Positions 17,052 through 62,423 are shown, counted from the first letter of the stretch. The stretch: 63,429 nucleotides of DNA from Gammaproteobacteria bacterium (GCA_015492435.1 WGFB01000009.1:1-63429); one strand, 5' to 3'. Notes: a model not told the origin generated them from the sequence alone. Program-made: numbers and translations.

Positions 17052-17174
17052 ACTGGAATCGTCCGGCCTCTCCCCGGCACCTTCCCGGCGGAAGATTCTG
17101 TCCCGCCACGCAGATGGTGTACAATTCATGGTCCGCCCCGTGAAAAAGCCGGGGCATTGCAAGGAGAAAACACA

Positions 17175-17720: not shown

Positions 17721-17726
17721 TCGATC

Positions 17727-19052: not shown

Positions 19053-19065
19053 CCCCGGCACGCCC

Positions 19066-42075: not shown

Positions 42076-42537
42076 ATGAAATACTGGCTCATGAAATCCG
42101 AACCGGATACTTATTCCATCGACGATCTGGCCGCGCAACCCCGCCGCACCGATCACTGGGACGGCATACGCAACTACCAGGCGCGAAATTTCATGCGCGA
42201 CGAGATGAAGAAGGGGGATCTGGCCTTTTTCTATCACTCCAACTGCAGTGAACCCGGCATCGCCGGCATCATGGAGATCGTCAGGGACGCCTATCCTGAT
42301 TTTACATCCTGGGACCCAGGCAGCCCCTATCATGACCCCAAGAGCAGTCCGGACCGGCCCCGCTGGTTCATGGTAGACGTCCGGTTCAAGCGCAAACTGA
42401 AAAGAATCATCACCCTGCGCGAGCTGAAACAGCATCCCGAACTCGGTTCCATGAAACTGTTACAGCGGGGCAACCGCCTTTCCATCATGCCTGTCAGTGA
42501 CAGGGAGTGGCGGTTCATTCTCTCCCTGATGGACTAG
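42076..42537 (+). CDS. EVE domain protein
   Basis: MKYWLMKSEP, WDGIRNYQARNFMR, FFYHSNC, PRW.MVDV. Confidence 0.93.
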   Translation: MKYWLMKSEPDTYSIDDLAAQPRRTDHWDGIRNYQARNFMRDEMKKGDLAFFYHSNCSEPGIAGIMEIVRDAYPDFTSWDPGSPYHDPKSSPDRPRWFMVDVRFKRKLKRIITLRELKQHPELGSMKLLQRGNRLSIMPVSDREWRFILSLMD

Positions 42538-42996
42538 CCTCAGTCATTGCAAAACAACGCTCCGGGTACTGATAACCGCGTTTCGGGCACGGTGGAATGC
42601 AGCCGGAGCATTCAAAAATGCCTCCTTTCAGGAAAACCTTTCGCGCGCCATGACGGCGCCTCGTGCTCCACGCACGCCGCTCAAGCTCGACGAAACATAA
42701 CCTCGCCCGGCCCGCATCATCACACCCGCCAATGTTTGGACATTGTCTGACACATGCGTTTCATGCTGTATATATAGCGTGAGCAACATATCATGCAAAC
42801 CATCCGGTGGACTGCATCACCCGGAAGTTGTTACGCATGACGAAAGAAAACACAGACACGATCTCCATTGAAATCATTCAAGAATAAAAAGCGCCAGTCG
42901 ATACACAATCTCGAATGTAGAATTTTTTGCGCAAATACTAGCAATATGTGTAAAGATGATTATACTTAATTGCGTTTAACACTCGGAGGATAAACG

Positions 42997-43386
42997 ATGG
43001 CCACAAAAAAATCTGTCGCCAAAAAGAAAGTAGCAACGAAAAAGAAAGCCGTAGCCAAGAAAAAAGCAGTAGCCAAGAAAAAAGTTGTTAAGAAAAAAGC
43101 CGCAGTCAAAAAGAAAGTCGTAAAGAAGAAAGCTGCCGCCAAGAAGAAAGTCGTAAAGAAGAAAGCCGCAACCAAGAAAAAGGCCGCTGCCAAGAAAAAA
43201 GTCGCAAAGAAAAAAGCAGCGCCCAAAAAGAAGGTAGCCAAGAAAAAAGCCGCCGCCAAAAAGAAAACCGCAAAGAAAAAAGCAGCGCCCAAAAAGAAAG
43301 TAGCCAAGAAAAAAGCCGCCGCCAAGAAAAAGGCCGCGCCGAAAAAGAAAACCGCCAAGAAAAAGGCGGCTGCCAAGAAGAAGTAA
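42997..43386 (+). CDS. Histone H1-like Lys/Ala-rich basic protein (129 aa)
   Basis: GGAGG RBS; 22 KKK triplets, 68 Lys, no acidic or aromatic residue; own terminator. Confidence 0.85.
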   Translation: MATKKSVAKKKVATKKKAVAKKKAVAKKKVVKKKAAVKKKVVKKKAAAKKKVVKKKAATKKKAAAKKKVAKKKAAPKKKVAKKKAAAKKKTAKKKAAPKKKVAKKKAAAKKKAAPKKKTAKKKAAAKKK

Positions 43387-43436
43387 AAGGAACCAGGAAT
43401 AACAAATCACGCATTCTGATTCTTTTTACCCAGGCA

Positions 43437-43470
43437 ATAAAAAAGGCCCGTTACCACGGGCCTTTTTTTA
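43437..43470 (+). terminator. Rho-independent (bidirectional-type) terminator
   Basis: A-run-GGCCCGT-TACC-ACGGGCC-TTTTTTT. Confidence 0.9.
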
Positions 43471-43498
43471 TTGCCCCACCCTGCGAGGCCAAACCTAA

Positions 43499-43657
43499 GG
43501 AACCTCTGATTAATTCTGGACCGGATAGATGGCGAGATGAAATGTTCCGGATCAAGGCGAAAAGCGCAGGCAATAGCATGCTATTGCCAAGATTTTCAAC
43601 GCAGAGCCGGGACATTTCAGCCGCCAGACGCCGGTTCATGAATTGATCAGAGGTTCC
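43499..43657. mobile_element. MITE family A, copy 3 (159 bp)
   Basis: Same TIRs; CTAA direct repeat on both sides. Confidence 0.9.
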
Positions 43658-43680
43658 CTAACCTTATGAAATCAAAACGT

Positions 43681-43725
43681 TATTAACCCGGCAACAATAT
43701 ATGTCGTGTTCAGCGCTTCAGGCCC
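43681..43725 (+). repeat. Left 45 bp of element family D
   Basis: TATTAACCCGGCAACAATATATGTCGTGTTCAGCGCTTCAGGCCC, one mismatch to 34487-34531. Confidence 0.8.
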
Positions 43726-43727
43726 CC

Positions 43728-44573
43728 TCAGCCGCCACGCAAGGAGGCGATCACCGGCGCCGTATCGGGACGAACACCCCGCCACAGCCAGAAAGATTCT
43801 GCCGCCTGCTCGACCAGCATCCCCAGCCCGTCCATGAGCCGCGACGCGCCTTGCGCCTCGCCCCATTGCAGGAATGGATTGACCTCCAGGCCATACATCA
43901 TGTCATAGCAGGCCCCGTGAACGGCGAGAATGCCATCAGGCAAAGGCAGGCTTTCTCCATGGAGGCTAGCCGCTGTGCCGTTAATGACAAGATCGAACGT
44001 TTCATCACCCAAGGCATCGAAGCCACAACCCTCCATCACCAGGTTTCCACCAAACGCCCGAGCCAGTATTTCGGCCTTTTCGGCGGTGCGGTTGGCAATG
44101 ACGACCCTGGCAGGCCGCTCAGCGAGCACGGGCCCCAGCACCCCGCGCACCGCGCCGCCCGCCCCCAATATCAACAACCGCCTGCCGGAGATGGCGCAAC
44201 CGTGGTTGAGGACGATGTCCCGCACCATTCCCACGCCATCCGTGTTGTCGCCCCGTACCAGCCCACTGTCGAGAAAAAGCAGGGTATTGACGGCACCAGC
44301 CTGCTCGGCCCGCTCACTGCGCTCCTCGGCATAGGTCCACGCCTCCTGCTTGAATGGCACGGTGACGTTCAGGCCCTTGCCGCCAGCGGCACGGAAATTG
44401 CCCACCGCCTGACTGAAACCGCCGGGATCAACCTGAATGGCCTCATAGACGATGCGCTGCCCCGTCTGCCGCGCGAGGGCCTGGTGAATCTGTGGTGACT
44501 TGCTGTGGCTGACCGGGTTGCCCATAACCGCATAACGGTCCGGCGGCCCATCGAAATCGAACAATGAATCCAT
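43728..44573 (-). CDS. aroE: Shikimate dehydrogenase
   Basis: GNPVSHSKSP.IH, NVTVPFK, GAVNT, NTDGVG, GAGGAVRG, GLGMLVEQAA; start at ATG 44573. Confidence 0.95.
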   Translation of the reverse strand: MDSLFDFDGPPDRYAVMGNPVSHSKSPQIHQALARQTGQRIVYEAIQVDPGGFSQAVGNFRAAGGKGLNVTVPFKQEAWTYAEERSERAEQAGAVNTLLFLDSGLVRGDNTDGVGMVRDIVLNHGCAISGRRLLILGAGGAVRGVLGPVLAERPARVVIANRTAEKAEILARAFGGNLVMEGCGFDALGDETFDLVINGTAASLHGESLPLPDGILAVHGACYDMMYGLEVNPFLQWGEAQGASRLMDGLGMLVEQAAESFWLWRGVRPDTAPVIASLRGG

Positions 44574-44587
44574 GTCGTGCCCTAGGC

Positions 44588-45844
44588 TCAATTGTAAAAG
44601 ATACCCTTGAGGATGAAGAAAAATAGAATGGCGAGGAAACCGCCCGCTGGCAGGGTCACCACCCATGACATGAAAATGGTGCGTATGACACGCATATTCA
44701 AGGCCGCGATACCGCGCGCCAGACCCACACCCAACACCGCCCCCACCAGGGTATGGGTAGTGGAAATGGGCAATCCCGTGCCCGACGCCAGCACGACCGT
44801 CGTGGCCGCCGCCAGGGTTGCCGCAAAGCCGCGGCTGGGCGTCAGCTCCGTGATGCGCGTGCCGATGGTGGCAATGACCTTGTGCCCATAGGTTATCAGG
44901 CCAATGACAATACCCACCCCTCCCAGCACCAGGATCCACAAGGGGAGCGCCGACTTCTGGGTCACCGCGCCATCGTGCTCCACGATGCTGACCACGGCGG
45001 CTATGGGACCCACGGCATTGGCCACGTCATTGGATCCGTGGGCAAAGGCCATGGCGCACGCCGTGACCATCATCAACACGGCGAAAACCTTCTCCACATT
45101 GGTAAAGTGAAATTCCTGATCGGCCTTGGGATCGATCTTGATGCGGCGGATGTAGACCTGGCTGACACCCGTAATAATGGCGCCGGCCAAGATGGCGAGC
45201 AGATAACACTCCAGGGTGCTCAGCTCCAGCCCTACATGCTTGAGGCCCTTGAATACCGTCACCAGGGTAATGACAAAACCCGTCAGAAAAATATAGACCG
45301 GCACGAAACGCTTGGCATTGGCGAAGGGATCGCTGGTATCGATGATCAGGCGCTGGACGCTGAGGAAAAGCCCATAGGCGATGGAACCCGCCAGCAATGG
45401 CGACACCACCCAGCTCATGACAATGGTGCCCACCTTGTTCCAATGCACGGCCTCCATGCCGATGCCGACGGCGGCAAAGCCAACGATGGCGCCCACGATG
45501 GAATGAGTCGTGGAGACGGGCCAGCCGAAATATGAGGCCACCAGCAGCCAGATCCCCGCCGCCAGCAGGGAGGCCAGCATGCCATACACCAGCAGTTCAG
45601 GGGTCGCGGCCAGCATATTGGCATCGACCATGCCCTTACGTATAGTCTGGGTCACCTCGCCCCCCGCCAGGAAGGCGCCGGCAAACTCGAAAATGGCGGC
45701 AATGATGACCGCCTGTCTGATGGTCAACGCCCCGGATCCCACCGAGGTCCCCATGGCATTGGCCACGTCGTTGGCGCCAATGCCCCATGCCATGAAAAAC
45801 CCGAAGGCGATCGCCAGAATAATGAAAGTGGTTCCGAAGTCCAT
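44588..45844 (-). CDS. Inorganic phosphate transporter, PiT family
   Basis: GANDVANAMG and HGSNDVANA repeats, PVSTTH / PISTTH. Confidence 0.93.
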   Translation of the reverse strand: MDFGTTFIILAIAFGFFMAWGIGANDVANAMGTSVGSGALTIRQAVIIAAIFEFAGAFLAGGEVTQTIRKGMVDANMLAATPELLVYGMLASLLAAGIWLLVASYFGWPVSTTHSIVGAIVGFAAVGIGMEAVHWNKVGTIVMSWVVSPLLAGSIAYGLFLSVQRLIIDTSDPFANAKRFVPVYIFLTGFVITLVTVFKGLKHVGLELSTLECYLLAILAGAIITGVSQVYIRRIKIDPKADQEFHFTNVEKVFAVLMMVTACAMAFAHGSNDVANAVGPIAAVVSIVEHDGAVTQKSALPLWILVLGGVGIVIGLITYGHKVIATIGTRITELTPSRGFAATLAAATTVVLASGTGLPISTTHTLVGAVLGVGLARGIAALNMRVIRTIFMSWVVTLPAGGFLAILFFFILKGIFYN

Positions 45845-45856
45845 TGCCCAGCCCCG

Positions 45857-46531
45857 CTACTTGGCCAGCATCAGTTGCAGGCGGCTGCCCACCCGCTGGG
45901 CGAGATCGGCGACATCGCCGATCCACTGGATGATCTGATAGAGAAACATGACATCCACCGGCGGCAGAGCCTTCTCGATCTCGAACAACATGGAACGTAT
46001 CTCCACCTGCAGCACATCGGTGTCGTTCTCGATCTTGTTCAACCCCTTGATGAGCCGGGTGACCAGTTTGGCCTCCTGCCCCCTGAATCCCGTCTCCAGT
46101 AGCTCGTCGAACTCGTTGATGACCTTCCGGGCCTGAAGGGCGGCATCGACACTGCGCCTGACATATTTCATCATTTTCTTAGTGAGCGGCTTTGGAATGG
46201 TCATTCTGCGCCCCAGCATCAGGCCGGCGATATCCTTGGCCTTGTTGGCCATGTAATCCTGCATGGCGATGACCTCCAGCAAATCGCGGCGGTCCACTGG
46301 CAGGAACATCCCCTTGGGCAACTGCAACCTCAATTCCCGCTTCAGTTCGTCAGCCTCGTTTTCCAAAGTCACGATGGACTCCTGGAGCGCCTGCATCTGC
46401 CCGTGATCCTGCTGGATCACGGCCTCGAAAAAGGGCACGAGTTGGGAAACGCAGGCTGAGGCACGCTCCATGTGCTGTTGCAGGGGACCGACAGGTGAGC
46501 GGCCAAACATGCGAAACAGGTAATCAGACAT
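45857..46531 (-). CDS. TIGR00153 / DUF47 phosphate transport regulator
   Basis: SP..PLQ.HM, LENEAD.LKR.LR..LP, E..TD..Q; upstream of PiT. Confidence 0.9.
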   Translation of the reverse strand: MSDYLFRMFGRSPVGPLQQHMERASACVSQLVPFFEAVIQQDHGQMQALQESIVTLENEADELKRELRLQLPKGMFLPVDRRDLLEVIAMQDYMANKAKDIAGLMLGRRMTIPKPLTKKMMKYVRRSVDAALQARKVINEFDELLETGFRGQEAKLVTRLIKGLNKIENDTDVLQVEIRSMLFEIEKALPPVDVMFLYQIIQWIGDVADLAQRVGSRLQLMLAK

Positions 46532-46753
46532 ACGGTGATCCTCTCAAAAGAATTCTGTCGTCGGAAACGAGGGTCAGGGGGGCGCGTTTTTTACCACGAA
46601 GGACACAAAGACTTTATTTTCATGGCAAAAAAGCCACTTGCTTGAAAGTATTGCCTTTAGATTAGACACCTGACAAATGCTTCACAAGCAAATCCAGCAC
46701 AACCTTCGTGATCTCCGTATCCTTCGAGGCAAAAAGAAAAATGATGGATGGGC

Positions 46754-47818
<1,065 letters not shown>

Positions 47819-47843
47819 TCAGCCCTGAATCCGCGGGTTCAGG

Positions 47844-49007
47844 TCAGCGTTTCCTGGCCACTTTCTTGCGGGTGGCTTTCGCCGCGGTCTTCTTCTTCGC
47901 CGCGGGCTTTTTCTTTACAGCCTTCTTTTTAACCGCCGTCTTTTGCTTTACGGTTTTCTTTTTCGCCGTGACCTTCTTTTTGACCGCGGCCTTCTTTGTT
48001 GCGGCCTTCTTTTTTTTGACGCCCGCCTTCTTCACCGCTTTTTTCTTCGCCGCCGCCTTTTTCTTGGCAGTGGTTTTTCTAGACGTGACCTTTTTCTTGG
48101 CCGGCGCTTTTTTCTTCACCACGGCTTTCTTTTTCACTGTGGCCTTCTTTTTTGTAGTAGCCTTCTTGGCTGCGGGCTTTTTCTTGACCGCTTTAGTGGT
48201 TTTTTTCTTTGCGGCAGCCTTCTTTTTGACGACTTTTTTCTTTGTGTCCGCCTTTTTCTGTGTAGCGGCCTTTGGCTTGGCGCTTACCGCCGCCTTCCTG
48301 GCGGCAGTCTTTTTCCCGGAAGGCACGGAATCCGCCGCTTTCTCGGTTCCTTCCTGCGCCATCGCCCAGTCGATGACCTTGACAATGGCCTTGAAAATAT
48401 CCTGGATCTCTCCCACGCCCTGCACGGTCTTGAGCAGGCCCTGGGTGCGATAATAATCGACAAGCGGCGTCGTCTGATGCTCGTAGACCCTGAGGCGGTT
48501 GCTGATGGTTTCCTCGTTGTCATCGGCGCGATGGCGCAGATTGCCGCCACATTTGTCGCAACGGTCTTCCAGCTTGGGCGGGGAGGTATAGATGTTGTAC
48601 ATCTGCCCGCAGGACTCGCAGGTGCGGCGCCCGGTGATGCGCTGCATCAGCACATCCAGATCGATATCGATGAGCAGCGCCATATCCAGTGGCTTGCCCA
48701 GCTTGGCCAGGGTGTCATCCAGGGCGCGCGCCTGCGCCAGATTGCGCGGAAAGCCGTCCAGGATGAAGCCGTCCCGCGTATCGTCCTCTTCCAGGCGCTC
48801 GCGTATCATGCCCAGCACGATTTCATCGGAAACCAGCCGCCCGGCGTCCATGGCCGCCCTGGCCTGCAGGCCCAGGGGCGTGCCCGCCTTGACCGCCGCG
48901 CGCAGCAGATCTCCCGTTGAAATCTGCGGTACATGGTACTTGCTGGCCATCAGTTTGCCCTGCGTTCCCTTCCCCGACCCCGGCGCTCCCAGCAGCACAA
49001 TTCTCAT
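47844..49007 (-). CDS. adk: Adenylate kinase with Cys4 LID and a C-terminal ~174-aa histone-H1-like tail
   Basis: GAPGSGKGTQ, STGDLLR, LDGFPR, CESC...CDKC, DD....NRL; then uninterrupted K/A/V/T-rich tail. Confidence 0.93.
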   Translation of the reverse strand: MRIVLLGAPGSGKGTQGKLMASKYHVPQISTGDLLRAAVKAGTPLGLQARAAMDAGRLVSDEIVLGMIRERLEEDDTRDGFILDGFPRNLAQARALDDTLAKLGKPLDMALLIDIDLDVLMQRITGRRTCESCGQMYNIYTSPPKLEDRCDKCGGNLRHRADDNEETISNRLRVYEHQTTPLVDYYRTQGLLKTVQGVGEIQDIFKAIVKVIDWAMAQEGTEKAADSVPSGKKTAARKAAVSAKPKAATQKKADTKKKVVKKKAAAKKKTTKAVKKKPAAKKATTKKKATVKKKAVVKKKAPAKKKVTSRKTTAKKKAAAKKKAVKKAGVKKKKAATKKAAVKKKVTAKKKTVKQKTAVKKKAVKKKPAAKKKTAAKATRKKVARKR

Positions 49008-49222
49008 TTGCCTTTACCCCGCTTTTCTCTGTACCTGAGCCTTTATTATTCGCCTTGAAAAACAGGCTGTTATATTTTATCTACCACATTGGGCGCGTAA
49101 CAGGGTAACCATGCAGCGGACAGTTTGCAACCGTGACGCCCCTTTGTCCCTCCCTTACCATCCGTCTAGCCATCCAATTCTCCACGCGACCATCCCGACT
49201 CCTGGCGGAAAATGCGGGCTAG

Positions 49223-49316
49223 GAGGCTGTCGGACTTAGGTGATCGTAGCGAGGCGAGTGGGAAATGGGCTCATTTCACGCCGCCGCAGTAGATTCATCC
49301 TAAGTCCGACAGCCTC
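49223..49316. mobile_element. MITE family B (94 bp)
   Basis: Perfect 18-bp TIRs GAGGCTGTCGGACTTAGG / CCTAAGTCCGACAGCCTC, CTAG on both sides. Confidence 0.85.
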
Positions 49317-49472
49317 CTAGCGCGGCTTCAATTTCATTCCCAGCCGAGTATTGTATGCTTATACCGTTTTTTTGACGGGATGAAAAGCTCGCTTGCGTGC
49401 GTGTTGCCCGTGGGCCATGCTATCTATTTTGCGCGAGAGCAAAACTGCAGCCATCACCGGAGGGAGAGAACA

Positions 49473-50738
49473 ATGACTAAAAAGAAAAATGCCTTTTATG
49501 CCCAGTCTGGAGGCGTCACCGCCGTCATCAACGCCACCGCCTGCGGAGTGATCGAGACGGCGCGTGGCCACAAGGACAAAATCGGCAAGGTGTACGCGGG
49601 CCGTAACGGAATCATTGGCGCCCTGACCGAGGATCTCATCGATACCAGCCGAGAATCCGCCAGCGCCATTGCCGCCTTGCGCCACACTCCGTCCGGAGCC
49701 TTCGGTTCCTGCCGCTACAAACTCAAGGGCCTGGAGGAGAACCGGCGCGAATACGAGCGCCTCATTGCCGTCTTCGAGGCTCATAATATCGGCTACTTCT
49801 TCTATAACGGCGGGGGAGACTCGGCCGACACCTGCCTCAAGGTTTCCCAGCTTTCCGAGCGCATGGGCTATCCCATCCAGGCCATCCATGTTCCCAAGAC
49901 CGTGGACAATGACCTGCCCATCACCGACAACTGCCCCGGCTTCGGCTCGGTGGCCAAATACATCGCGATCTCCACTCTGGAGGCCAGCTTCGACGTCGCC
50001 TCCATGGCCAAGACCTCCACCAAGGTGTTCGTGCTCGAGGTCATGGGCCGCCACGCCGGCTGGATCGCCGCTGCCGGCGGCATGGCCTCCACCGAAAAGG
50101 ACGAACTTCCCATCGTCATCCTCTTTCCCGAGGTGACATTCAACAAGAAACGTTTTCTGGACAAAGTGAAGACCATGGTCAAGGAATTTGGCTATTGTTC
50201 GGTGGTGGTCTCCGAGGGCGTGCGCGACCGCAGTGGCAAATTTCTCGCCGACCAGGGGCTGCGGGACGCCTTCGGGCACGCGCAGTTGGGAGGGGTGGCG
50301 CCCGTGGTGGCCAACATCATCAAGGAAGGCCTGGGATACAAGTATCACTGGGGGGTCGCCGATTACCTGCAGCGCGCCGCGCGCCATATCGCCTCCAAAA
50401 CGGACGTGGAGCAGGCATACGCCATGGGCAGGGCGGCGGTGCAATTCGCCCTGCAAGGCCACAACTCGGTGATGCCCACCATCGTGCGCGCCTCCAACAA
50501 GCCCTACCGCTGGAAAGTGGGCATGGCGCCTCTCAAGAAGGTGGCCAACGTGGAAAAGATGATGCCCAAGAGCTTCATCAGCCGCGACGGCTTCGGCATC
50601 ACCAAGAAGTGCCGCGATTATCTCGCCCCGTTGATGCGCGGGGAAGACTACCCACCCTACAAGGATGGACTGCCGCGCTATGTCCGCCTGAAAAACGTGG
50701 CAGTCAGGAAGAAACTGAACCAGGACTTCAAGATCTGA
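49473..50738 (+). CDS. pfp: 6-phosphofructokinase, predicted pyrophosphate-dependent
   Basis: QSGG..AVIN, NGGGDS, PKTVDND, EVMGRHAGW; start at ATG 49473. Confidence 0.88.
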   Translation: MTKKKNAFYAQSGGVTAVINATACGVIETARGHKDKIGKVYAGRNGIIGALTEDLIDTSRESASAIAALRHTPSGAFGSCRYKLKGLEENRREYERLIAVFEAHNIGYFFYNGGGDSADTCLKVSQLSERMGYPIQAIHVPKTVDNDLPITDNCPGFGSVAKYIAISTLEASFDVASMAKTSTKVFVLEVMGRHAGWIAAAGGMASTEKDELPIVILFPEVTFNKKRFLDKVKTMVKEFGYCSVVVSEGVRDRSGKFLADQGLRDAFGHAQLGGVAPVVANIIKEGLGYKYHWGVADYLQRAARHIASKTDVEQAYAMGRAAVQFALQGHNSVMPTIVRASNKPYRWKVGMAPLKKVANVEKMMPKSFISRDGFGITKKCRDYLAPLMRGEDYPPYKDGLPRYVRLKNVAVRKKLNQDFKI

Positions 50739-50748
50739 TCGCGCCGGC

Positions 50749-50777
50749 GCGGGTCCGGGGAGACGCCCCGGACCCGC
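50749..50777. terminator. Hairpin between convergent pfk and hppA
   Basis: GCGGGTCCGGGG-N5-CCCCGGACCCGC. Confidence 0.6.
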
Positions 50778-50789
50778 CTCCATCCCGGC

Positions 50790-52799
50790 CTAACCACCCA
50801 GCAGCGGAGCGATCACCAGGCTGACGATCGCCAGCACATTGATCAGGATGTTCATGGAAGGCCCGGAGGTATCCTTGAAGGGATCACCGACGGTGTCACC
50901 CACCACGGCGGCCTTGTGGACATCGGAACCCTTGCCGCCGAGGTTGCCTTTCTCCACATATTTCTTGGCATTGTCCCAGGCGCCTCCGGCATTGGCCATG
51001 GTCAGGGCCAGGAGCACGCCGGCCACCAGGGCGCCACCCAGCATCCCGCCCAGGGCCTGGGGACCGATGCCGAATCCCACCACCACGGGCGCCGATACCG
51101 CCAGGACGCCCGGCAGGATCATCTTTTTCAACGCGGCCTGAGTGGCGATATCCACGCAGCGCTCGTTGTCTGGCTTGGCCGTCCCCTCCAGCAACCCCGG
51201 GATCTCGCGGAACTGGCGGCGGATCTCCTTGATCATGTCGAAAGCCGCGTCACCCACCGCCGTCATGGTCAGAGCTGCCACCAGGAAGGGGAAAATGCCT
51301 CCCAAAAACATGCCCATCAGGACATGGGGATTACCCAGCTCCAGGCTGAAGTTTTCCACATGCAAAGAGACTTCCTGCACATAGGCGGTAATGATGGCCA
51401 ACGCCGCCAGGGCCGCGGCCCCGATGGCGAAGCCCTTGCCGATAGCGGCAGTGGTATTGCCCAGTTCGTCCAGAGAATCGGTGATCTTGCGGGTATCCTC
51501 GCCCAGTTCAGCCATTTCGGCGATCCCGCCTGCGTTGTCCGCCACGGGACCATAGGCATCGATGGCCATGGTGATACCCACCGTGGCCAGCATGCCTACC
51601 GCCGCAATACCCACGCCATAGAGGCCGCATAGTTCACTGGAAACATAGATGATTCCCGCGAGGGTCAACAGAGGCACCACAACGGATTGCATGCCCGTGG
51701 CCAGGCCGGTGATCATCACCGTGGCCGGCCCGGTCTCCCCCGCCTTGGCGATGTGACGCACGGGGGCGGCGGCCGTGTAGTATTCCGTCACCAGACCGAT
51801 GATGATGCCGCCCAAGGAGCCCACCAGCACCGCGCCCCAGGCGGAACCGTGCACGCCCACCATTTTGATGATGAGGTAGGCCAGCAGGATGAAGGCTACC
51901 GAGGCCCCGATGGTGCCGATGCGCAGGGCCACGTCCGCCGCCTTGTTGGAAAACTTTTTCACCATGGCGACGCCGAGCACGGAACAGATCAGGCCACCCG
52001 AGGCCAGCGCCAAAGGCAGGAACATCAGGTCGGCGCGCTCACCCAGGTTGGCGAGTTGCGCCAGGGACATGGTGGAGGCCATGGCAATGGTGGCGATCAT
52101 GGCGCCGCAATAGGACTCGAAAATATCCGATCCCATGCCGGCCACATCGCCCACGTTGTCACCCACGTTGTCGGCGATCACACCCGGATTGCGGGGATCG
52201 TCCTCCGGAATGCCGGCCTCCACCTTGCCCACCAGGTCGGCGCCCACGTCGGCGCTCTTGGTGTAGATGCCGCCGCCCACACGGGAGAACAAGGCGACGC
52301 TGGAGGCGCCCATGCCGAACCCATGGATCTTGGCCGCCGTCTCCGGGTCACCGCCAAAGAAGAGATAGAGGATCCCCAGCCCGAAAAGGCCGATGGACGC
52401 CACCACCAGGCCCATGATGGAACCGCCGAAAAAGGCGACGGTGAGGGCATCGGATGCCCCCTTGGTGTGGGCCGCCTCGGTGGTGCGCACATTGGCCTGA
52501 GTTGCCGTGTACATGCCGATGTACCCGGCCGTCGCCGAACTCAGAGCGCCGACGAGAAAGGCAAAGGTCGTCCCGATCCCCAGGGAGAACAACAGCAAGA
52601 CAGCAACCACCGCGACGAAAATACCCAGCATCCTGTATTCACGGCGTATGAAGACCATGGCCCCCTGGTGGATGGCATCGGCGATCTCCGTTATCTTTCC
52701 CGAGCCGGCGGGATATTCCTTGACCAGTAGATAGATTCGATAGGCTATATACAAGCCTGCGGCGCCGAATAGCGGCGGCAACAAATGAGAAAAGCTCAT
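50790..52799 (-). CDS. hppA: Membrane-bound ion-translocating pyrophosphatase
   Basis: [58 protein letters not shown]. Confidence 0.95.
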
Positions 52800-53083
52800 G
52801 TCTCCCCCTGTCAGGTCACTGATATTATTGTCGTTGGAAGATCTTGACTACATTGGTAGCTTACTGTTCTTGTTGTAAATATTCTGTCCTGGCGGTCGTC
52901 TGGCGGGACATGGAAACATCCCCGGAATGACTGTCTCCGCGCGCTGCGCGCAAGCCACATGAAAGAATAGACAAATCACTTACGCAAATCAATGGCGGGG
53001 AACACGCATCGGATTTATCATACCGGCGAAGTACGGGTATAATGCGCGCTCACAAAATTGATGTAACGCTCAGGAGCCAAGCC

Positions 53084-53632
53084 ATGAATCTGGACAGGGT
53101 CAACCCCGGTCAAAATGTTCCCAATGAAATCAACGTCATCATCGAGATCCCTTCTCATAGCGACCCCGTCAAATACGAGGTGGACAAGGAAAGCGGCGCC
53201 ATGTTCGTGGACCGCTTCATGGCCACGGCCATGTTCTACCCCTGCAATTACGGCTATGTGCCCCACAGCCTCTCGGAGGATGGCGATCCGGTGGACGTTC
53301 TCGTGGTCACGCCCGTCCCGCTCATCAGCGGCTCGGTGATCACCTGCCGCCCGGTGGACATGCTGGAAATGACCGACGAATCCGGCGTGGACGCCAAGAT
53401 TCTTGCCGTACCCACCGACAAGCTCAGCAGTATATATAGTCACGTTCATTCCGGACAGGACCTGCCCCCCAACCTGCTGGCGCAACTGACCCATTTTTTT
53501 GAGCATTACAAGGATCTGGAGCCCAACAAATGGGTGCGCATCGAGGGCTGGACAGGACCCGACAAGGCCAGGCAGGAAATCGTGGACAGCATCAGGCGTT
53601 ACGACGATTCACCCGAGAAACCGTGTTTTTGA
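53084..53632 (+). CDS. ppa: Soluble inorganic pyrophosphatase (family I)
   Basis: VKYEVDK, YP.NYG..P.SL..DGDPVD, D.KILAVP, FF.HYKDLE; CAGGAG RBS before ATG 53084. Confidence 0.95.
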
Positions 53633-53718
53633 ACCGGATCCACAAACAGAGAAGGCCGCAACCTTGAATCAAGGGCGGTCACGCCGCCAGGAAATCTGAC
53701 TCCGACTCCCATGCCGCC

Positions 53719-54612
53719 GTGGCTCATCATACCCACCAGCACACCGCCTCCGCCGACCGAACACTGATCACGGGACTCGCCGTTACCCTCTCCTATGCCC
53801 TCATCGAGGCGCTGGGCGGCTGGTGGTCGGGCTCCCTGGCTTTGCTGGGCGACGCCGGGCACATGCTCACCGACGCAACGGCCCTGGGTCTGGCGGCCTT
53901 CGCCGCCTGGGTATCGCGTCAGCCGCCCTCCAGCCGCCACTCCTATGGCCTGGTGCGCGCCGAGGTCGTGGCCGCCATGGTCAATGGCCTGTTCATGCTA
54001 ATCATCGTGGCAAGCATCGCCTACCACGCCATCGAGCGCCTGCGCCACCCCCACGAAGTGGCCGGTGGCGCGGTGATGATCATCGCCTTCATCGGCCTGC
54101 TGGTGAATCTCTATGTGGCAAAGATTCTCCATGGTGGCGAACAGACCCTCAACACACGCGCGGCATTGCTGCATGTGCTGGGCGACCTGCTGGGCTCGGT
54201 CGCGGCCCTCCTGGCCGGCGCGGTGATTTATTTCACGGGCTGGACGCCGATCGATCCCCTGCTTTCCCTGCTCATCTGCGCCCTCATCCTGTGGTCCAGC
54301 GTGCGCTTGCTGCGCGATGTCCTGCACGTCATCATGGAAGGCGTGCCCCCCTACCTCGACCTGCCCGAGGTGGGCCGCGCCATGGCAGGAGTTAGAGGCG
54401 TCAATTCAATACACGACCTGCACATATGGACCTTGTCCTCGGGTTTGGTGGCCCTGTCGGCCCATGTGGTGATCGAGGATCTGAGCCATTGGGAAGACAC
54501 CCTGGCGCGCTTGAAGGAACTGCTGAAATCCCGTTACGCCATTGAACATGTCACCCTGCAGCCGGAAACACCCTCACCCCATCCGGTGCCCATCGAGCTG
54601 AATCTGAAATAG
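53719..54612 (+). CDS. Cation diffusion facilitator (ZitB/CzcD-like)
   Basis: His-rich N-terminus, SLALL.DA.HM..D, H..GD.LGS, HDLHIW, H.T.Q.E; GTG start uncertain. Confidence 0.9.
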   Translation: MAHHTHQHTASADRTLITGLAVTLSYALIEALGGWWSGSLALLGDAGHMLTDATALGLAAFAAWVSRQPPSSRHSYGLVRAEVVAAMVNGLFMLIIVASIAYHAIERLRHPHEVAGGAVMIIAFIGLLVNLYVAKILHGGEQTLNTRAALLHVLGDLLGSVAALLAGAVIYFTGWTPIDPLLSLLICALILWSSVRLLRDVLHVIMEGVPPYLDLPEVGRAMAGVRGVNSIHDLHIWTLSSGLVALSAHVVIEDLSHWEDTLARLKELLKSRYAIEHVTLQPETPSPHPVPIELNLK

Positions 54613-54733
54613 CAAAATCTCCCCACCTTCATCGTGATTTTTGCTACCATGTGATGCCATTCGGCGGCAGTAAAACCCAATCAGATGGCGCCTCTTCGAG
54701 CCGCGGCGCCATGCGTTAAGGAGCACAATACCC

Positions 54734-55951
54734 ATGTCACAACTCGTCAAACCTCACGGCAGCAATGAACTCAAGCCCCTCCTGCTGGAGGGTGAAGCCC
54801 TGACTGAAGAACAGAACCGCGCCCAGAGCCTGCCCAGCATCCGCATCAGCTCCCGCGAGGTGGGCGACCTGATCATGATGGGCATCGGCGGCTTCACGCC
54901 CCTGGAAGGCTTCATGACCCACAGCGACTGGCAGGGCGTATGCGACGGCTACAAGATGGCCAATGGCCTGTTCTGGCCCATTCCCATCACCCTGTCCACG
55001 GACCGCGCTACCGCGGAGGACATCAAGACCGGCTCGGAAATCGCCCTGGTCAACGGTGAGACGGACGAAATCATGGCCACCATGCAGGTGACGGAGAAAT
55101 ACGAGATCGACAAGGCCCATGAGTGCATGACCGTCTACAAGACCACGGACATCGCCCACCCTGGCGTAAAAATGGTGATGGAGCAAGGCGATATCAATCT
55201 GGCCGGCCCCGTCAAGGTGCTCTCCCAGGGGGATTTCGCCAGCCGTTTCCCCGACATCTACATGACCCCGGCCCAGACCCGCGCCCTGTTCGAGAAAAAG
55301 GGCTGGTCCACCGTCGCGGCCTTCCAGACCCGCAACCCCATGCACCGCTCCCACGAATACCTGACCAAGATCGCCATCGAGATCTGCGACGGAGTGCTGA
55401 TCCATTCCCTGCTCGGCAAACTCAAGCCGGGCGACATTCCCGCCGAGGTGCGCAGCGCGGCCATCGACGCCCTGGTCAACGAATATTTCGTGGAAAATAC
55501 CGTGGTGCATGCCGGCTATCCCCTGGACATGCGCTATGCCGGCCCCCGCGAGGCCCTGCTGCACGCCCTGTTCCGCCAGAACTACGGGTGCTCCCATCTG
55601 CTGGTCGGCAGGGACCATGCGGGCGTGGGCGACTATTACGGCCCCTTTGATGCCCATCATATCTTCGACGAAATCCCGGCGGACGCCCTGCTGACCAAGC
55701 CCCTGAAGATCGACTGGACCTTCTGGTGCTACAAATGCAACGGCATGGCCTCCATGCGCACCTGCCCCCACGAAGGCGGCGACCGCCTGCTCCTCTCAGG
55801 CACCAAATTACGCAAGGCCCTCTCCGAGGATGAGGAGGTACCCGCCGAGTTCAGCCGCCCCGAGGTACTGGCCATCCTGCGGGAATATTACGCCGGCATT
55901 GCCAAGAACGAGCGGGTGGAAGTAGAACTCAAGGGTCACTCCGCCAAATAA
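54734..55951 (+). CDS. sat: Sulfate adenylyltransferase (ATP sulfurylase, homo-oligomeric Sat type)
   Basis: [38 protein letters not shown]. Confidence 0.95.
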
Positions 55952-56071
55952 GCATCCGGCCCGGCCATGCCCGGGCCGATACCCCCCCACGTTCTGACCA
56001 GGGCGCCGGAAGCGCCCTGACAGGCGTTTTTCCATCACGAAATGTCAGAAAATTCTGGCATGAACCATGCA

Positions 56072-56087
56072 CCACAATATGTTGTGG
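56072..56087. promoter_or_regulatory. NrdR box (distal)
   Basis: CCACAATATGTTGTGG, near-palindrome resembling the NrdR consensus acaCwAtATaTwGtgt. Confidence 0.75.
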
Positions 56088-56233
56088 TCAGGGGTTTCCA
56101 CGCCCCTATCTCAAAGCCTGATCAAAAACCTCTGGGTTCGACCGTTCCCCAACCCAAAAATAGCTATTAACATGATGAAAATAAAGCATAAATTTTAGGC
56201 CGGCAAGACTGCGGCCCGGACTTGAAAAAAGCG

Positions 56234-56262
56234 TTGACAGGTTCCACCATTTGCAAGAGAAT
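56234..56262 (+). promoter_or_regulatory. Sigma-70 promoter of nrdJ
   Basis: TTGACA-N17-GAGAAT, NrdR box 12 bp downstream. Confidence 0.6.
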
Positions 56263-56273
56263 CAGATTTCCAA

Positions 56274-56289
56274 ACACAATATATTGTGT
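56274..56289. promoter_or_regulatory. NrdR box (proximal)
   Basis: ACACAATATATTGTGT, perfect 16-bp palindrome upstream of an RNR gene. Confidence 0.9.
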
Positions 56290-56393
56290 TTCCTGCCAGG
56301 GTTCGTGACATGAACAGCGCGCGGGCCGCGCACGGCGCCGCAACTACGGAACGCATCAAATAACTGAATTCGATTCATGGAGTTAACAACAAT

Positions 56394-59300
56394 ATGGAAT
56401 CCGCACACCTGCGCATCATTTCCGACAACGCCCCCAATATCAAGCTGCAACCGGCCTCCCTCGACATCTGGGACAAGAAATACCGCCTCAAGAGCAAGGA
56501 CGGCGTCTGCATCGACGAAACCATAGACGACACCTACAAGCGCGTGGCCCGCGCCCTGGCGGACGTGGAGACCTCCCTGGACGCCCGCGAGAAATGGTAC
56601 GAGGCCTTCCTGTGGGCCCTGCGCCATGGCGCCATCCCCGCCGGCCGCATCACCTCCAATGCCGGCGCCCTGGAACACAAGCCCGCCACCTCCACCATCA
56701 ACTGCACCGTCTCCGGCACCATCAAGGACTCCATGGACGGGATCCTGGAGAAGGTCCACGAGGCCGGCCTGACCCTCAAGGCGGGCTGCGGCATCGGCTA
56801 CGAATTCTCCACCCTGCGCCCCAAGGGCGGCTACGTCTCCGGCGCCGGCGCCTACACCTCCGGCCCCATGTCCTTCATGGACATCTACGACAAGATGTGT
56901 TTCACCGTCTCCTCCGCCGGCGGGCGGCGCGGCGCCCAGATGGGCACCTTCGACATCGGCCACCCCGATGTGCTGGACTTCATCAAGGCCAAGCGCGAGG
57001 ACGGCCGCCTGCGCCAGTTCAACCTCTCCCTGCTCATCACGGAAGAGTTCATGGATGCCGTGAAGAACGACCGGCAATGGCCGCTGGCCTTTCCCATCAC
57101 CCCCACGGAGGCCTACAACGAGTCCCTCGACCTCGACGACCCGGACAAGGTGGTCTGGCGCGACTGGCCCACCAAGAGCGACTACATCACCAACGAGCAA
57201 GGGCTGGTGGCCTGCAAGATCAGCAGGAAAATCCGTGCGCGCCGCCTGTGGGATGTCATCATGTCCTCCACCTACGACTACGCGGAACCCGGCTTCATCC
57301 TCATCGACAAGGTCAACGAGATGAACAACAACTGGTTCTGCGAGAACATCCGCGCCACCAATCCCTGCGTCACGGCGGAAACCTGGGTACAGACGGCGCA
57401 AGGCCCCCGCCAGGTCCGCGACCTGGTGGGGCGGCCATTCCACGCCATCGTCGATGGCCAGGCCCATGCCTCCACACGGGAAGGGTTCTTCAGGACCGCC
57501 ACCAAGCCCGTGGTCAGGCTCATGACCAGCGAGGGCTATCACCTGCGCCTGACCGCGGATCATCGCGTGCGCCGGGTCACCCGCTTCACCCGTTATGCCA
57601 CCGACACCGAATGGTGCGAGGCTGGCAAATTGCGCGCGGGCGACCGCGTGCTGCTCAACGATCACCGCGCGGCGCAGGGCTGGGAAGGCCCCTACAACAG
57701 GGAGCAGGGCTATCTGCTCGGCCTTCTGCTGGGAGACGGCACCCTGAAAACCGACAAGGCCGTCCTCTCCGTCTGGACATCCGCCCTGGCCGCCAACGGC
57801 GCGGAGGCCCCGCTGCCCCAAGGAATCCGCGCCGTCATGGACGCCGCCCTGCAGGCCGCCCGCGCCCTGCCCCATCGCGGCGATTTTCAGGGCTGGCAGG
57901 CTATCGCTGGGCGCAACGAATACCGCCTCTCCACCGCGGCCCTGAAGCGGCTGGCGGAAGAGGCGGGCATGACGCCCGGCAACAAGGCCGTCACCCCCAT
58001 CATGGAGCGCGCCTCCAGTGAATTCTACCGGGGCTTCCTGCGCGGCCTGTTCGACGCGGATGGTTCCGTCCAGGGCAGCCACGAGAAGGGCGGCAGCGTG
58101 CGCCTCGCCCAATCGGACCTGGCCTGCCTGGAGGCCGTGCAGCGCATGCTGCTGCGCCTGGGCATCGCCTCCCGCCTCTACCGCTTCCGGCGCAAGGCGG
58201 GCAGCCGCCTGCTGCCGGACGGCAAGGGCGGCGAGGCATCCTATGCCGTCCGGGACCAGCACGAGCTGGTCATCAGCAACGAGAACCTGCTGCGCTTCCA
58301 TGAGAGGGTGGGCTTTGCCGACGTGGACAAGCAGGAACGCCTGGAACGGCACCTGTCCCGCTACAGGCGCAAACTCAACCGCGAGCGATTCGTGGCGCGC
58401 GTGGAGGCCATCGAGCCCGACGGCGTGGAGGACGTGTACGATGTGCAGATCCCCGGCATCAACACCTTCGACGCCAACGGTCTCCATGCCCACAATTGCG
58501 GGGAACAACCCCTGCCCCCTTACGGCTCCTGCCTGCTGGGCTCCGTCAACCTCACCAAGTTCGTCCGGGCGCCCTTCACCGACAAGGCGCAGTTCGACTG
58601 GGAGGAATACCGCAAGGTGGTCGCCATTTTCACGCGCATGCTCGACAACGTGGTGGAAATCAACGGCCTGCCCCTGCCCCAGCAGCGCGAGGAGATCATG
58701 AGCAAGCGCCGCCACGGCATGGGCTATCTGGGACTGGGCTCCACCTTGACCATGCTGCGCATGAAATACGGCGACCAGGATTCACTGGAATTCACCGAGC
58801 GGGTCACCCGTGAAATGGCCCTCACGGGCTGGCATACGGCCCTGGAACTCGCCCGCGAGAAAGGCTGCGCCCCCATCCTGGAGCAGGACTTCACCGTCAC
58901 GGATGAAATGCTGCGCAAGCGTCCGGAAATGGCCCGTGACGGTTACAAGCCCGGCGACATCGTCAAGGGCAAGGTGCTGCACGCGCGCTACAGCCGCTAC
59001 ATGCAAAAGATCGCCGCCGTCGAGCCGGAACTGGTGGAAAACCTTGCAGCGGAAGGGGCGCGCTTCACCCATCACACCTCCATCGCGCCCACGGGCACCA
59101 TCTCCCTGTCCCTGGCCAACAACGCCAGCAACGGCATCGAGCCCAGCTTCGCCCATCACTACTCGCGCAACGTGATCCGCGAGGGCAAGAAGACCAAGGA
59201 GAAGGTGGACGTCTATTCCTTCGAACTGCTGGCCTACCGGCAGCTGGTCAACCAGGACGCCATGCCCGATACCGGGGAGGGTGAAAACAGGCTGCCCGAG

Positions 59301-59678
59301 TATTTCATCGCCGCGGACGACATCCATCCCAGGCAACACGTGGACGTTCAGGCGGCGGCCCAGTTGTGGGTGGACTCGTCCATCTCCAAAACGGCCAACG
59401 TGCCCAGCGACTATCCCTATGAGGACTTCAAGGATATCTACCTCTACGCCTACGAGAAGGGCCTGAAGGGCTGCACCACCTTCCGCTTCAACCCGGAGGC
59501 CTTCCAGGGCGTGCTGGTCAAGGAGCAGGACCTGGAAAACACGATCTACCGTTTCGTCCTGGAAGACGGCACCGTCGTCGAGGCCAGGGGCAACGAGGAA
59601 ATCGAGTACGACGGCGAGATACACACCGCCGCCAACCTCTACGACGCTCTCAAGGAAGGGTATTACGGAAAACACTGA
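56394..59678 (+). CDS. nrdJa: Class II (adenosylcobalamin-dependent) ribonucleotide reductase large chain, intein-containing
   Basis: INCTVS, GCGIG, RRGAQM, ATNP[intein]CGEQ, SIAPTGTISL, DSSISKT, KGCTTFR; no N-terminal ATP-cone recognised. Confidence 0.93.
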   Translation: MESAHLRIISDNAPNIKLQPASLDIWDKKYRLKSKDGVCIDETIDDTYKRVARALADVETSLDAREKWYEAFLWALRHGAIPAGRITSNAGALEHKPATSTINCTVSGTIKDSMDGILEKVHEAGLTLKAGCGIGYEFSTLRPKGGYVSGAGAYTSGPMSFMDIYDKMCFTVSSAGGRRGAQMGTFDIGHPDVLDFIKAKREDGRLRQFNLSLLITEEFMDAVKNDRQWPLAFPITPTEAYNESLDLDDPDKVVWRDWPTKSDYITNEQGLVACKISRKIRARRLWDVIMSSTYDYAEPGFILIDKVNEMNNNWFCENIRATNPCVTAETWVQTAQGPRQVRDLVGRPFHAIVDGQAHASTREGFFRTATKPVVRLMTSEGYHLRLTADHRVRRVTRFTRYATDTEWCEAGKLRAGDRVLLNDHRAAQGWEGPYNREQGYLLGLLLGDGTLKTDKAVLSVWTSALAANGAEAPLPQGIRAVMDAALQAARALPHRGDFQGWQAIAGRNEYRLSTAALKRLAEEAGMTPGNKAVTPIMERASSEFYRGFLRGLFDADGSVQGSHEKGGSVRLAQSDLACLEAVQRMLLRLGIASRLYRFRRKAGSRLLPDGKGGEASYAVRDQHELVISNENLLRFHERVGFADVDKQERLERHLSRYRRKLNRERFVARVEAIEPDGVEDVYDVQIPGINTFDANGLHAHNCGEQPLPPYGSCLLGSVNLTKFVRAPFTDKAQFDWEEYRKVVAIFTRMLDNVVEINGLPLPQQREEIMSKRRHGMGYLGLGSTLTMLRMKYGDQDSLEFTERVTREMALTGWHTALELAREKGCAPILEQDFTVTDEMLRKRPEMARDGYKPGDIVKGKVLHARYSRYMQKIAAVEPELVENLAAEGARFTHHTSIAPTGTISLSLANNASNGIEPSFAHHYSRNVIREGKKTKEKVDVYSFELLAYRQLVNQDAMPDTGEGENRLPEYFIAADDIHPRQHVDVQAAAQLWVDSSISKTANVPSDYPYEDFKDIYLYAYEKGLKGCTTFRFNPEAFQGVLVKEQDLENTIYRFVLEDGTVVEARGNEEIEYDGEIHTAANLYDALKEGYYGKH
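57366..58496 (+). mobile_element. Intein (377 aa) with dodecapeptide LAGLIDADG homing endonuclease
   Basis: Begins CVTAET, block B LTADH, blocks LLGLLLGDG and LRGLFDADG, ends LHAHN before Cys; removing it restores ATNPCGEQ. Confidence 0.95.
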
Positions 59679-59722: not shown

Positions 59723-60421
59723 ATGGCCATCAAGATAGACAAAAAAATCGTCGACTACGAAGTCGCCAGCAAGAGCGAAGACAAGACTGCGGACACGGCT
59801 CAACCCCAGGCCGGCGACCCGTCCAACATCATCCAGATGCACGAAAAACTCGAGCGGCCCGACATGCTGCTGGGCTCCACCTACAAGGTCAAGACGCCCC
59901 TCAGCGAACACGCCCTCTACGTCACCATCAACGACGTCATCCTCAACGAGGGCACCGAACACGAACTGCGGCGCCCCTTCGAGATCTTCATCAACTCCAA
60001 GAACATGGACCACTTCCAGTGGATCGTCGCCCTCACCCGCATCATCTCCGCCGTATTCAGGAAGGGCGGCGACATCACCTTCCTGGTGGAGGAACTGCGT
60101 TCCGTGTTCGATCCCCGTGGCGGCTACTTCAAGAAAGGCGGCAAGTTCATGCCCTCCCTGGTGGCCGAGATCGGCGACGTCATCGAGCACCACCTTAAAT
60201 CCATCGGCATGCTCAACAGTGAAAACCTCGACAACCACCAGAAGGCATTCATCGCCCAGAAACGCGAGGAATACAGTGCCTCCCAGGACGAGCAGAACAA
60301 CCAGAACGACAACGCCTTCCCCGCGGGCGCCCAGCTCTGCAACAAGTGCAACACCAAGGCCATGATCCAGATGGACGGCTGCCTGACCTGCCTCAATTGC
60401 GGCGAGTCTAAATGCGGCTGA
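59723..60421 (+). CDS. nrdJb: NrdJb / TSCPD-domain subunit with C-terminal Zn ribbon
   Basis: TYKVKTP..EHALYVTIND, RPFEIFINSK, C-terminal CNKC..DGCLTCLNCGESKCG. Confidence 0.88.
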   Translation: MAIKIDKKIVDYEVASKSEDKTADTAQPQAGDPSNIIQMHEKLERPDMLLGSTYKVKTPLSEHALYVTINDVILNEGTEHELRRPFEIFINSKNMDHFQWIVALTRIISAVFRKGGDITFLVEELRSVFDPRGGYFKKGGKFMPSLVAEIGDVIEHHLKSIGMLNSENLDNHQKAFIAQKREEYSASQDEQNNQNDNAFPAGAQLCNKCNTKAMIQMDGCLTCLNCGESKCG

Positions 60422-62138: not shown

Positions 62139-62423
62139 TATAGCATTTGAGCCGGATCTGCTCTATGCGCAGATGGACTGGTGAATCAGCCGGGATAGCC
62201 TGAGCGCCCGCTTGTACGCAGCCATATATGCCAATCCACCTTGCCACGTAGCAAGCGTAGCGGAATTCCAGAGATGGCAGCCTACCCCAGCCGTGGCTGC
62301 CTGGATATTAGTGGCAATATTTCCAACGTAAAAATATTATTTCTTTAATATTCAACAGAATAGTTAAATGGTTGCCAATTGGCCTGCCCTACTATCCATC
62401 TGTTTCAAAAGATGGATTTTGAC

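Follow-up and report, generated by a model that had tools for sequence, protein, structure and literature searches.

The window analysed here, 63,429 nucleotides long, is one whole contig of a 2.1-Mb assembly of a gammaproteobacterium (GCA_015492435.1; 128 contigs, 90.5% complete). Between positions 44588 and 55951 it carries a group of genes concerned with phosphate (Pi), inorganic pyrophosphate (PPi) and adenylates, which was mapped from an open reading frame (ORF) listing together with Pfam and NCBIfam profile searches. Four genes form its centre: adk, for adenylate kinase (47844-49007, minus strand; NF001380, 298 bits over residues 1-213); pfp, for a PPi-dependent 6-phosphofructokinase (49473-50738, plus strand, in an ORF open from 49380; NF010675, 660 bits, cut-off 273); hppA, for a membrane-integral pyrophosphatase (PPase; 50790-52799, minus strand; PF03030, 845 bits); and ppa, for a family I soluble inorganic pyrophosphatase (53084-53632, plus strand; NF002317, 280 bits). 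They are followed by the gene of a ZitB-like CDF divalent-cation exporter (53719-54612, plus strand; TIGR01297, 268 bits) and by sat, for a homo-oligomeric ATP sulfurylase (54734-55951, plus strand; NF003166, 534 bits). The segment is probably the local version of a widespread adk<>pfp-hppA-ppa cassette of CO2-fixing Gammaproteobacteria, set among neighbours that are specific to the bacterial family.

The genes of the segment are all single-copy in the genome, except that of the CDF exporter, which has a 37%-identical paralogue. They are arranged in at least four transcription units, with adk-hemB(-phoU_div-pit-aroE) read to the left, pfp to the right, hppA to the left and ppa-CDF-sat to the right. 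An earlier interpretation made from the DNA alone (the sequence-only reading) was thus correct in stating that the genes lie on mixed strands and do not form one operon. The genes that it named (PiT transporter, regulator, Adk, Pfk, HppA, Ppa and Sat) were all recovered by Pfam and NCBIfam at the positions given; its list is incomplete in leaving out hemB and the CDF transporter. The hppA gene is convergent with pfp, with 51 nt between the stops, and the two genes are neighbours in most genera of the family. A spacer of 284 nt separates hppA from the divergent ppa, which is called as a 182-residue gene in other assemblies. A promoter-like site, TTATCA-17-TATAAT, lies 5' of ppa at 53015-53043; the promoter and terminator scan of the segment gave nothing else decisive, and an Rfam search over 42500-56500 gave only sub-threshold noise, with no riboswitch or leader.

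By its motifs, Pfp is of the PPi-dependent type. It has the sequences PKTVDND and NGGGDS, the latter with Asp at the fourth position of the GGDG/GGDD motif, and these are the positions by which the types of phosphofructokinase (PFK) are told apart (PMC12203962). The closest structures in the PDB are the PPi-dependent PFKs 3HNO from Nitrosospira multiformis (771 bits) and 3K2Q from Marinobacter (670 bits). Pfp is the sole PFK-family gene, neither a paralogue nor an ATP-dependent enzyme (ATP-PFK) having been found in the genome, so that glycolysis, if it runs, has to go through Pfp. Ahead of the ATG at 49473 stands GGAGGGAGAGA, a GGAGG-like site, and the proteins of relatives align only from about residue 25-35 of the ORF listed from 49380; the true start is most likely 49473. 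A 474-residue ORF on the opposite strand (49359-50783, minus) has no family match and was rejected as a shadow of pfp by its position.

About 118 nt upstream of pfp lies the element GTATGCTTATACCGTTTTTTT (49353-49373, plus strand), a 9-20-mer of which recurs at 10 family loci, 98-161 nt upstream of the gene. The element is a candidate promoter or operator. The spacer between adk and pfp also holds a palindromic insertion resembling a miniature inverted-repeat transposable element (MITE) at 49215-49324, to which no strand applies. Its 26-nt inverted arms are 96% complementary, and its hairpin accounts for a weak Rfam match to MIR2118. Over 25 contigs of the genome carry copies or fragments of it, often at their ends, and the insertion is not part of the module.

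The membrane PPase has the sequences GNTTAA, with Ala at position 12.46, and GSDIFES, with Glu at 6.53. A12.46 combined with E6.53 is found in K+-dependent Na+ pumps or Na+/H+ dual pumps, K12.46 in K+-independent H+ pumps and E6.57 in K+-dependent H+ pumps (PMC10897367, Table 1). HppA is predicted from these residues to belong to the K+-dependent class with the Na+ or Na+/H+ signature. It shares both Ala 12.46 and Glu 6.53 with the Na+-PPase of Thermotoga maritima (4AV3) and with Na+/H+ dual pumps; it is slightly closer to the H+-PPase of Vigna radiata (551 bits, as compared with 518 bits to 4AV3), and similarity to PDB entries alone does not decide the ion. Its pairing with a PPi-dependent PFK and ppa has not been described for the Thermotoga enzyme.

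The gene order in the family was established from 33 neighbourhoods, after a scan had found Pfp in 35 of 41 relatives. The order aroE-(pit-phoU_div)-hemB-adk, pfp, hppA, (ppa)-CDF-sat-RNR, where RNR is a ribonucleotide reductase, is found in 11 genera, with pit/phoU_div, hppA or ppa lost in particular ones. Conservation of the synteny in relatives, which the sequence-only reading had put forward as a check, is therefore established within the family, and the core recurs beyond it. The Pfp of this type is present in 307 of 400 evenly drawn genomes of the class. Sixty further neighbourhoods were chosen as those of the highest Pfp scores among hits with an upstream flank of 9 kb or more, a sample biased to close relatives of this Pfp, and the class-level neighbour counts given below cover 71 genomes outside the family.

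In these genomes the distance from adk to pfp is at most 1.5 kb in 50 of 71 cases, with adk divergently upstream 45 times and co-directionally downstream five times. A membrane PPase gene is found downstream of pfp in 43 of 71, of which 35 are co-directional and encode the K+-independent GNTTKA form and eight are convergent and encode the K+-dependent GNTTAA form. Downstream on the pfp strand, ppa is present in 29 of 71; adk, membrane PPase and ppa occur together near pfp in 21 of 71. Other neighbours are rare: a CDF gene, placed after ppa, in five of 71, a Sat gene of a different type (45-47% identical) in four of 71, and PiT/PhoU_div in one or two of 71. These counts define adk<>pfp-hppA-ppa as the recurrent unit. 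The clustering is more than chance, given single-copy genes, 11 genera and recurrence in most of the 71 genomes of other families. The CDF-sat pair is particular to this family and to a few neighbouring families; within the family it persists even at loci that have lost ppa or hppA. PiT/PhoU_div, present within the family in some genera only, look like syntenic passengers, as do hemB and aroE, and the inclusion of the Pi transporter as a member of a phosphate hub in the sequence-only reading finds no backing in the counts outside the family.

In 34 of the 71 genomes a further gene immediately precedes pfp on the pfp strand. This gene encodes a conserved protein of about 115 residues (L129 8784-9146, L131 8933-9274, L174 10610-10963 and 31 other loci) with the consensus ...IPDFTDxELW...ERYG...CPA.YW...C.F...K.G..RYR.QFFYR..QQYGTG..EYDDL..CV.TLLQVQADH. 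It has no match in Pfam, NCBIfam or the PDB and is absent from the genome of the window.

The form of the membrane PPase and its orientation go together. The GNTTKA sequence was found in five of five classical co-directional HppA proteins checked from other families; GNTTAA with Glu 6.53 was found in five HppA proteins of the family and at five further loci, four of them marine (L006, L011, L012 and L013) and one more distant (L083). In all eight class-level cases of the K+-dependent form, hppA converges on pfp, while ppa is still on the pfp strand. An HppA type about 74% identical occurs in a divergent hppA<>ppa pair lacking pfp in metagenome-assembled genomes (MAGs) of marine heterotrophs, among the matches listed those of Pleionea, Paraglaciecola, Pseudoalteromonas and Methylophaga. 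The matches listed from a scan of contigs with HppA belong mostly to distant phyla and include one similar MAG locus. The simplest reading is that the H+ pump of the family was replaced in situ by a pump predicted to be of the Na+ type.

Adk consists of a complete core (residues 1-213) and a C-terminal tail of about 174 residues (47844-48368, minus strand) that is rich in Lys and Ala and resembles histone H1. Of 68 adk genes that adjoin pfp in many families (loci L087-L179), 49 encode a long C-terminal extension, of 96-326 residues and mostly rich in K, A and P; one genus of the family has an Adk without the tail. A docking role for the cationic tail on polyphosphate was considered and left unsupported, because queries with E. 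coli Ppk and Ppx gave no homologue in this genome; regular expressions for PPK2 and PPDK also gave nothing credible in it. The adk gene is divergent from pfp, and hemB (porphobilinogen synthase; 46754-47770, minus strand; NF006762, 520 bits) lies 73 nt downstream of it, an adjacency kept in the family. A 394-residue ORF on the opposite strand (46748-47932, plus) has no family match and was read from its position as a shadow of hemB.

The genome encodes the means of fixing CO2. Contig C87 carries cbbL, for a RuBisCO large subunit of form-I size, with cbbS, cbbQ, cbbO and a divergent LysR regulator gene, cbbR; phosphoribulokinase is also present (NF011997, 517 bits). The cbbLS genes that the sequence-only reading suggested looking for are therefore found, and 24 of the 25 family genomes encode RuBisCO. 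The absence of fructose-1,6-bisphosphatase (FBPase) and sedoheptulose-1,7-bisphosphatase (SBPase) that it had envisaged is contradicted by a class 1 FBPase (PF00316, 223 bits; NF006779, 586 bits); GlpX was not found in the genome. Outside the family, adk is linked to pfp in 43 of 54 RuBisCO-positive and seven of 17 RuBisCO-negative genomes (Fisher p = 0.005, ignoring phylogeny), and a membrane PPase gene in 37 of 54 and six of 17, respectively (Fisher p = 0.02, ignoring phylogeny). The genome also has a group 3b-like [NiFe] hydrogenase. Sat proteins identical to that of the window are encoded by scaffolds of REYS20 metagenomes and by assembly GCA_015487295.1, and the naming of the REYS20 sample would place the source habitat in hydrothermal-vent deposits.

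The link between pfp and hppA is already published. It has been proposed that PPi-dependent PFK replaces FBPase and SBPase in the Calvin cycle and that a co-encoded H+-PPase uses the PPi (PMC4949241, PMC5960693), and the pairing of pfp with a membrane PPase gene in the window is that of the energy-saving variant of the cycle which the sequence-only reading had recognised. A pfp-hppA operon is described, in work cited by PMC4949241 and PMC5960693 (Reshetnikov 2008, Kleiner 2012), for Methylococcus capsulatus Bath, ammonia-oxidising bacteria and thiotrophic symbionts. The segment resembles the Methylococcus type of operon in its Pfp family (NF010675), the adjoining membrane PPase, RuBisCO with phosphoribulokinase, and the lack of an ATP-PFK. 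It differs in that the PPase is predicted to be K+-dependent, with E6.53, rather than a K+-independent H+ pump, in that hppA is convergent with pfp, so that no operon is possible, and in the presence of a class 1 FBPase and of adk, ppa and sat flanking the pair. In the literature searched, the coverage of which was incomplete, adk and ppa were not found as regular members of the pfp-hppA association.

The place of sat beside these genes raises the question of sulfur oxidation. The sequence-only reading assigned the group to the oxidation of sulfite via adenosine 5'-phosphosulfate (APS), with Sat consuming PPi. The search for aprA (TIGR02061) gave only a 25-bit match to a flavoprotein in this genome, and none of the 25 family genomes, several with a completeness of 99-100%, has aprA. 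By this search the gene was detected in two of 16 genomes of other families and in 45 of the 71 class-level genomes, which shows that the search works. Only weak matches to NirB and to a Sir-like protein were obtained for dsrB in this genome, and none for soxB; a regular expression for the GGCGG C-terminus of SoxY also found nothing, in searches that did not cover sHdr, Soe, Fcc, TsdA or Cyc2. The sole hint of sulfide oxidation is a flavoprotein resembling sulfide:quinone oxidoreductase that scores below the cut-off. Thus neither the aprBA nor the rdsr/sox genes for which that reading suggested a check are represented by aprA, dsrB or soxB here, and its route through APS reductase is not sustained.

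The enzymes of sulfate assimilation present a different picture. E. coli CysD, CysN and CysC have no orthologue in this genome by tblastn, and a regular expression for APS kinase gave nothing credible in it. With E. coli CysH as the query, on the other hand, a homologue was recovered over its full length (33% identity, E = 6e-28); it scores 204 bits on NF002537, for which the cut-off is 154, and has the motif FCCS...GCKHC...ECGLH, of the Fe-S type CC...CxxC, which we take to be the signature of reductases that accept APS directly. The CysI query found a sirohaem-type protein of 695 residues that matches the NirA, Sir and CysI models, all below cut-off, and could equally be a nitrite reductase. 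No other sulfurylase accompanies Sat in the genome, and Sat together with the Fe-S-motif CysH fits assimilation by the route Sat-CysH-Sir. Given the absence of aprA, cysDN and cysC and the presence of CysH and the Sir/NirA-type protein, Sat, the only sulfate-activating enzyme of the cell, is most likely assimilatory and a producer of PPi, which is the reverse of the role of PPi consumer assigned to it by the sequence-only reading.

The closest structures to Sat, aligned over the full length, are those from sulfur oxidisers, 1JHD (346 bits) and 4DNX (343 bits), and this similarity leaves the direction of the reaction unfixed. Sat is like the enzymes of Allochromatium vinosum and the Riftia symbiont (4DNX, 1JHD) in being a homo-oligomeric protein of about 400 residues. 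Unlike their AprBA and Sat system, it occurs without AprA in the genome or the family and without rDsr or SoxB, and it is the sole sulfurylase beside an assimilatory CysH and the Sir/NirA-type protein, so that the predicted direction is the opposite. A link between the APS pathway and PPi does exist in other lineages, since aprA lies 1.6-10 kb from pfp in four Apr-positive genomes of other families (G172:C4, G340:C1, G338:C1 and G192:C17), with the order aprA ... sat ... hppA-adk-pfp in G192.

The working of the cassette may be pictured as follows. Pfp would reversibly interconvert fructose 6-phosphate plus PPi and fructose 1,6-bisphosphate plus Pi, and probably acts also on sedoheptulose 7-phosphate and sedoheptulose 1,7-bisphosphate, to judge from the characterised enzyme of Methylococcus. 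When running towards gluconeogenesis or in the Calvin cycle, it would release PPi instead of Pi. The membrane PPase would hydrolyse the PPi derived from Pfp and from biosynthesis while pumping ions, and the soluble Ppa would clear the surplus. Adk would recycle the AMP arising with PPi when ATP is split into AMP and PPi. As this split yields one AMP, a substrate for Adk, and one PPi, a substrate for the PPases or Pfp, the two arms of salvage may have been kept together. Sat would convert ATP and sulfate into APS and PPi, to be followed by CysH and then Sir, and this source of PPi would be pulled forward by the adjacent PPases. In the family, a convergent K+-dependent PPase with the Na+ (or Na+/H+) signature would have taken the usual place of the H+-PPase; with such an enzyme in the pump slot, the ion gradient built from PPi would probably be one of sodium.

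Several observations weigh against this picture of the segment as a Calvin-cycle cassette. The alternating strands of pfp, hppA and ppa make co-transcription impossible, and any co-regulation is inferred. The class 1 FBPase means that Pfp is not required for the Calvin cycle and that its PPi-dependent form is optional. The single ammonia oxidiser with an FBPase expresses PPi-dependent PFK at a lower level (PMC5960693), a pattern by which the FBPase weakens the proposal here but does not exclude it. In several genera of the family the locus has lost hppA or ppa while RuBisCO is retained, and the coupling is to that extent dispensable. The association tests with RuBisCO ignore phylogeny, the class-level sample is biased to close relatives of this Pfp, and the assembly is incomplete by nearly a tenth. 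The Sir/NirA-type protein is below every NCBIfam cut-off. The predicted Na+ selectivity rests on two positions shared with dual Na+/H+ pumps, and ion selectivity is argued to depend on the geometry of helix 5 as well (PMC10897367).

Two other explanations, both unlikely, have to be weighed. The first is that the arrangement is ancestral, consisting of single-copy housekeeping neighbours kept together by descent, with no function beyond the known pfp-hppA pair. It would account for the alternating strands, for hemB, aroE and the CDF transporter interspersed among the genes, for the loss of pit/phoU_div, hppA and ppa in single genera that retain RuBisCO, and for the lack of a regulatory RNA or motif shared by the units. 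However, descent alone does not readily explain why adk is within 1.5 kb of pfp in two different arrangements, or why ppa follows the membrane PPase whatever its type or orientation. The PPase slot was moreover refilled by an enzyme of a different class and not left empty, and the linkage is commoner in RuBisCO-positive genomes.

The second explanation, likewise improbable, is a module for PPi homeostasis and glycolysis that is unrelated to the Calvin cycle. Pfp would here be glycolytic, acting on stored or imported sugars with biosynthetic PPi, HppA would be reversible and serve as a gradient-driven PPi synthase, and Ppa would cap the PPi. Such a module would agree with the lack of an ATP-PFK, with the availability of FBPase for the gluconeogenic and Calvin direction, and with the occurrence of the cassette, partly complete, in 17 RuBisCO-negative genomes. 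Roles of PPi-dependent PFK in PPi homeostasis are documented (PMC12203962), as is the reversibility of membrane PPases (PMC9408878). Against it stand the enrichment of the cassette partners in RuBisCO-positive genomes, the near-universal presence of RuBisCO in the family, and the fact that the closest characterised homologues of Pfp are those proposed for the Calvin cycle (PMC5960693).

Dissimilatory sulfur oxidation, in which sulfite would be oxidised by way of APS reductase, with Sat as the consumer of PPi, Adk rebalancing AMP, and HppA or Pfp supplying or buffering PPi, derives some appeal from the sulfur-oxidiser structures closest to Sat, from the frequency of aprA in class genomes with this Pfp and its position no more than about 10 kb from pfp in four of them, and from the different-type Sat beside the cassette at four loci, but it is very improbable and largely refuted for this lineage by the missing aprA, dsrB and soxB and by the need for Sat in assimilation where cysDN is absent. 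Of the PPi-economy supercluster in a sulfur oxidiser that the sequence-only reading put forward, the conserved PPi neighbourhood associated with Calvin-cycle genes stands, and the sulfur oxidiser does not.

The adk<>pfp-hppA-ppa cassette of CO2-fixing Gammaproteobacteria remains the probable identity of the segment. A bolder form of this reading is possible but doubtful. Here adk and ppa, and elsewhere the protein of about 115 residues encoded upstream of pfp, would be co-selected members of the cassette, forming a unit of AMP and PPi salvage of autotrophic Gammaproteobacteria. The Apr-less hydrothermal family would have exchanged the H+ pump in situ for a Na+-type PPase, so that the PPi of the Calvin cycle and of sulfate activation would energise a sodium-motive force.

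The genes to the left of hemB complete the segment. The PhoU_div accessory protein (DUF47; 45857-46531, minus strand; PF01865, 199 bits; TIGR00153, 186 bits, above cut-off) is encoded upstream of the PiT-family transporter (44588-45844, minus strand; PF01384, 409 bits), 12 nt from it, and aroE, for shikimate dehydrogenase, follows at about 43728-44540 on the minus strand, its start being approximate (PF08501, PF18317 and PF01488). Two-gene units of PhoU_div (DUF47) and PiT are known, for example pap-pit of Sinorhizobium meliloti and ykaA-pit of Bacillus subtilis. The pair in the window is like these in having the DUF47/TIGR00153 gene immediately upstream of the PF01384 transporter gene; it is unlike them in that the NCBIfam matches of the transporter, all below cut-off, are to the CysP sulfate permease (the best) and to PitA. 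The substrate is probably Pi, sulfate being the other candidate.

To the right of sat lies the gene of the ribonucleotide reductase with a LAGLIDADG intein (56394-59678, plus strand; identified by Pfam). A 232-residue ORF just past it (59723-60421, plus strand) matches only positions 586-759, at the C-terminal end, of the model for B12-dependent ribonucleotide reductase, which suggests that the gene is split or rearranged. The end of the contig carries the gene of a HipA-like toxin kinase (60556-61761, minus strand) and a fragment of a Mutator-family transposase (62368-62736, plus strand). A free-standing ORF of 129 residues at 42997-43386 (plus strand) has no Pfam match. Farther to the left, at 13806-20639 on the minus strand, four consecutive ORFs (217, 449, 913 and 405 residues) have no Pfam match and a third-position GC content of 0.64-0.70, below that of their neighbours; they may have been acquired as an island.

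The proposal of a PPi-dependent Calvin cycle draws mainly on the pairing of pfp with hppA, and the present data sharpen it in three respects. In most of the autotrophic lineages sampled, adk and ppa travel with pfp and hppA; the pump appears to be exchangeable for one of the Na+ type; and the cassette persists in a family that has an FBPase and lacks the APS pathway. A sat gene beside enzymes of PPi metabolism does not by itself indicate dissimilatory sulfur oxidation. These points lead to the predictions that the recycling of AMP and of PPi would be co-regulated and that PPi would drive sodium energetics.

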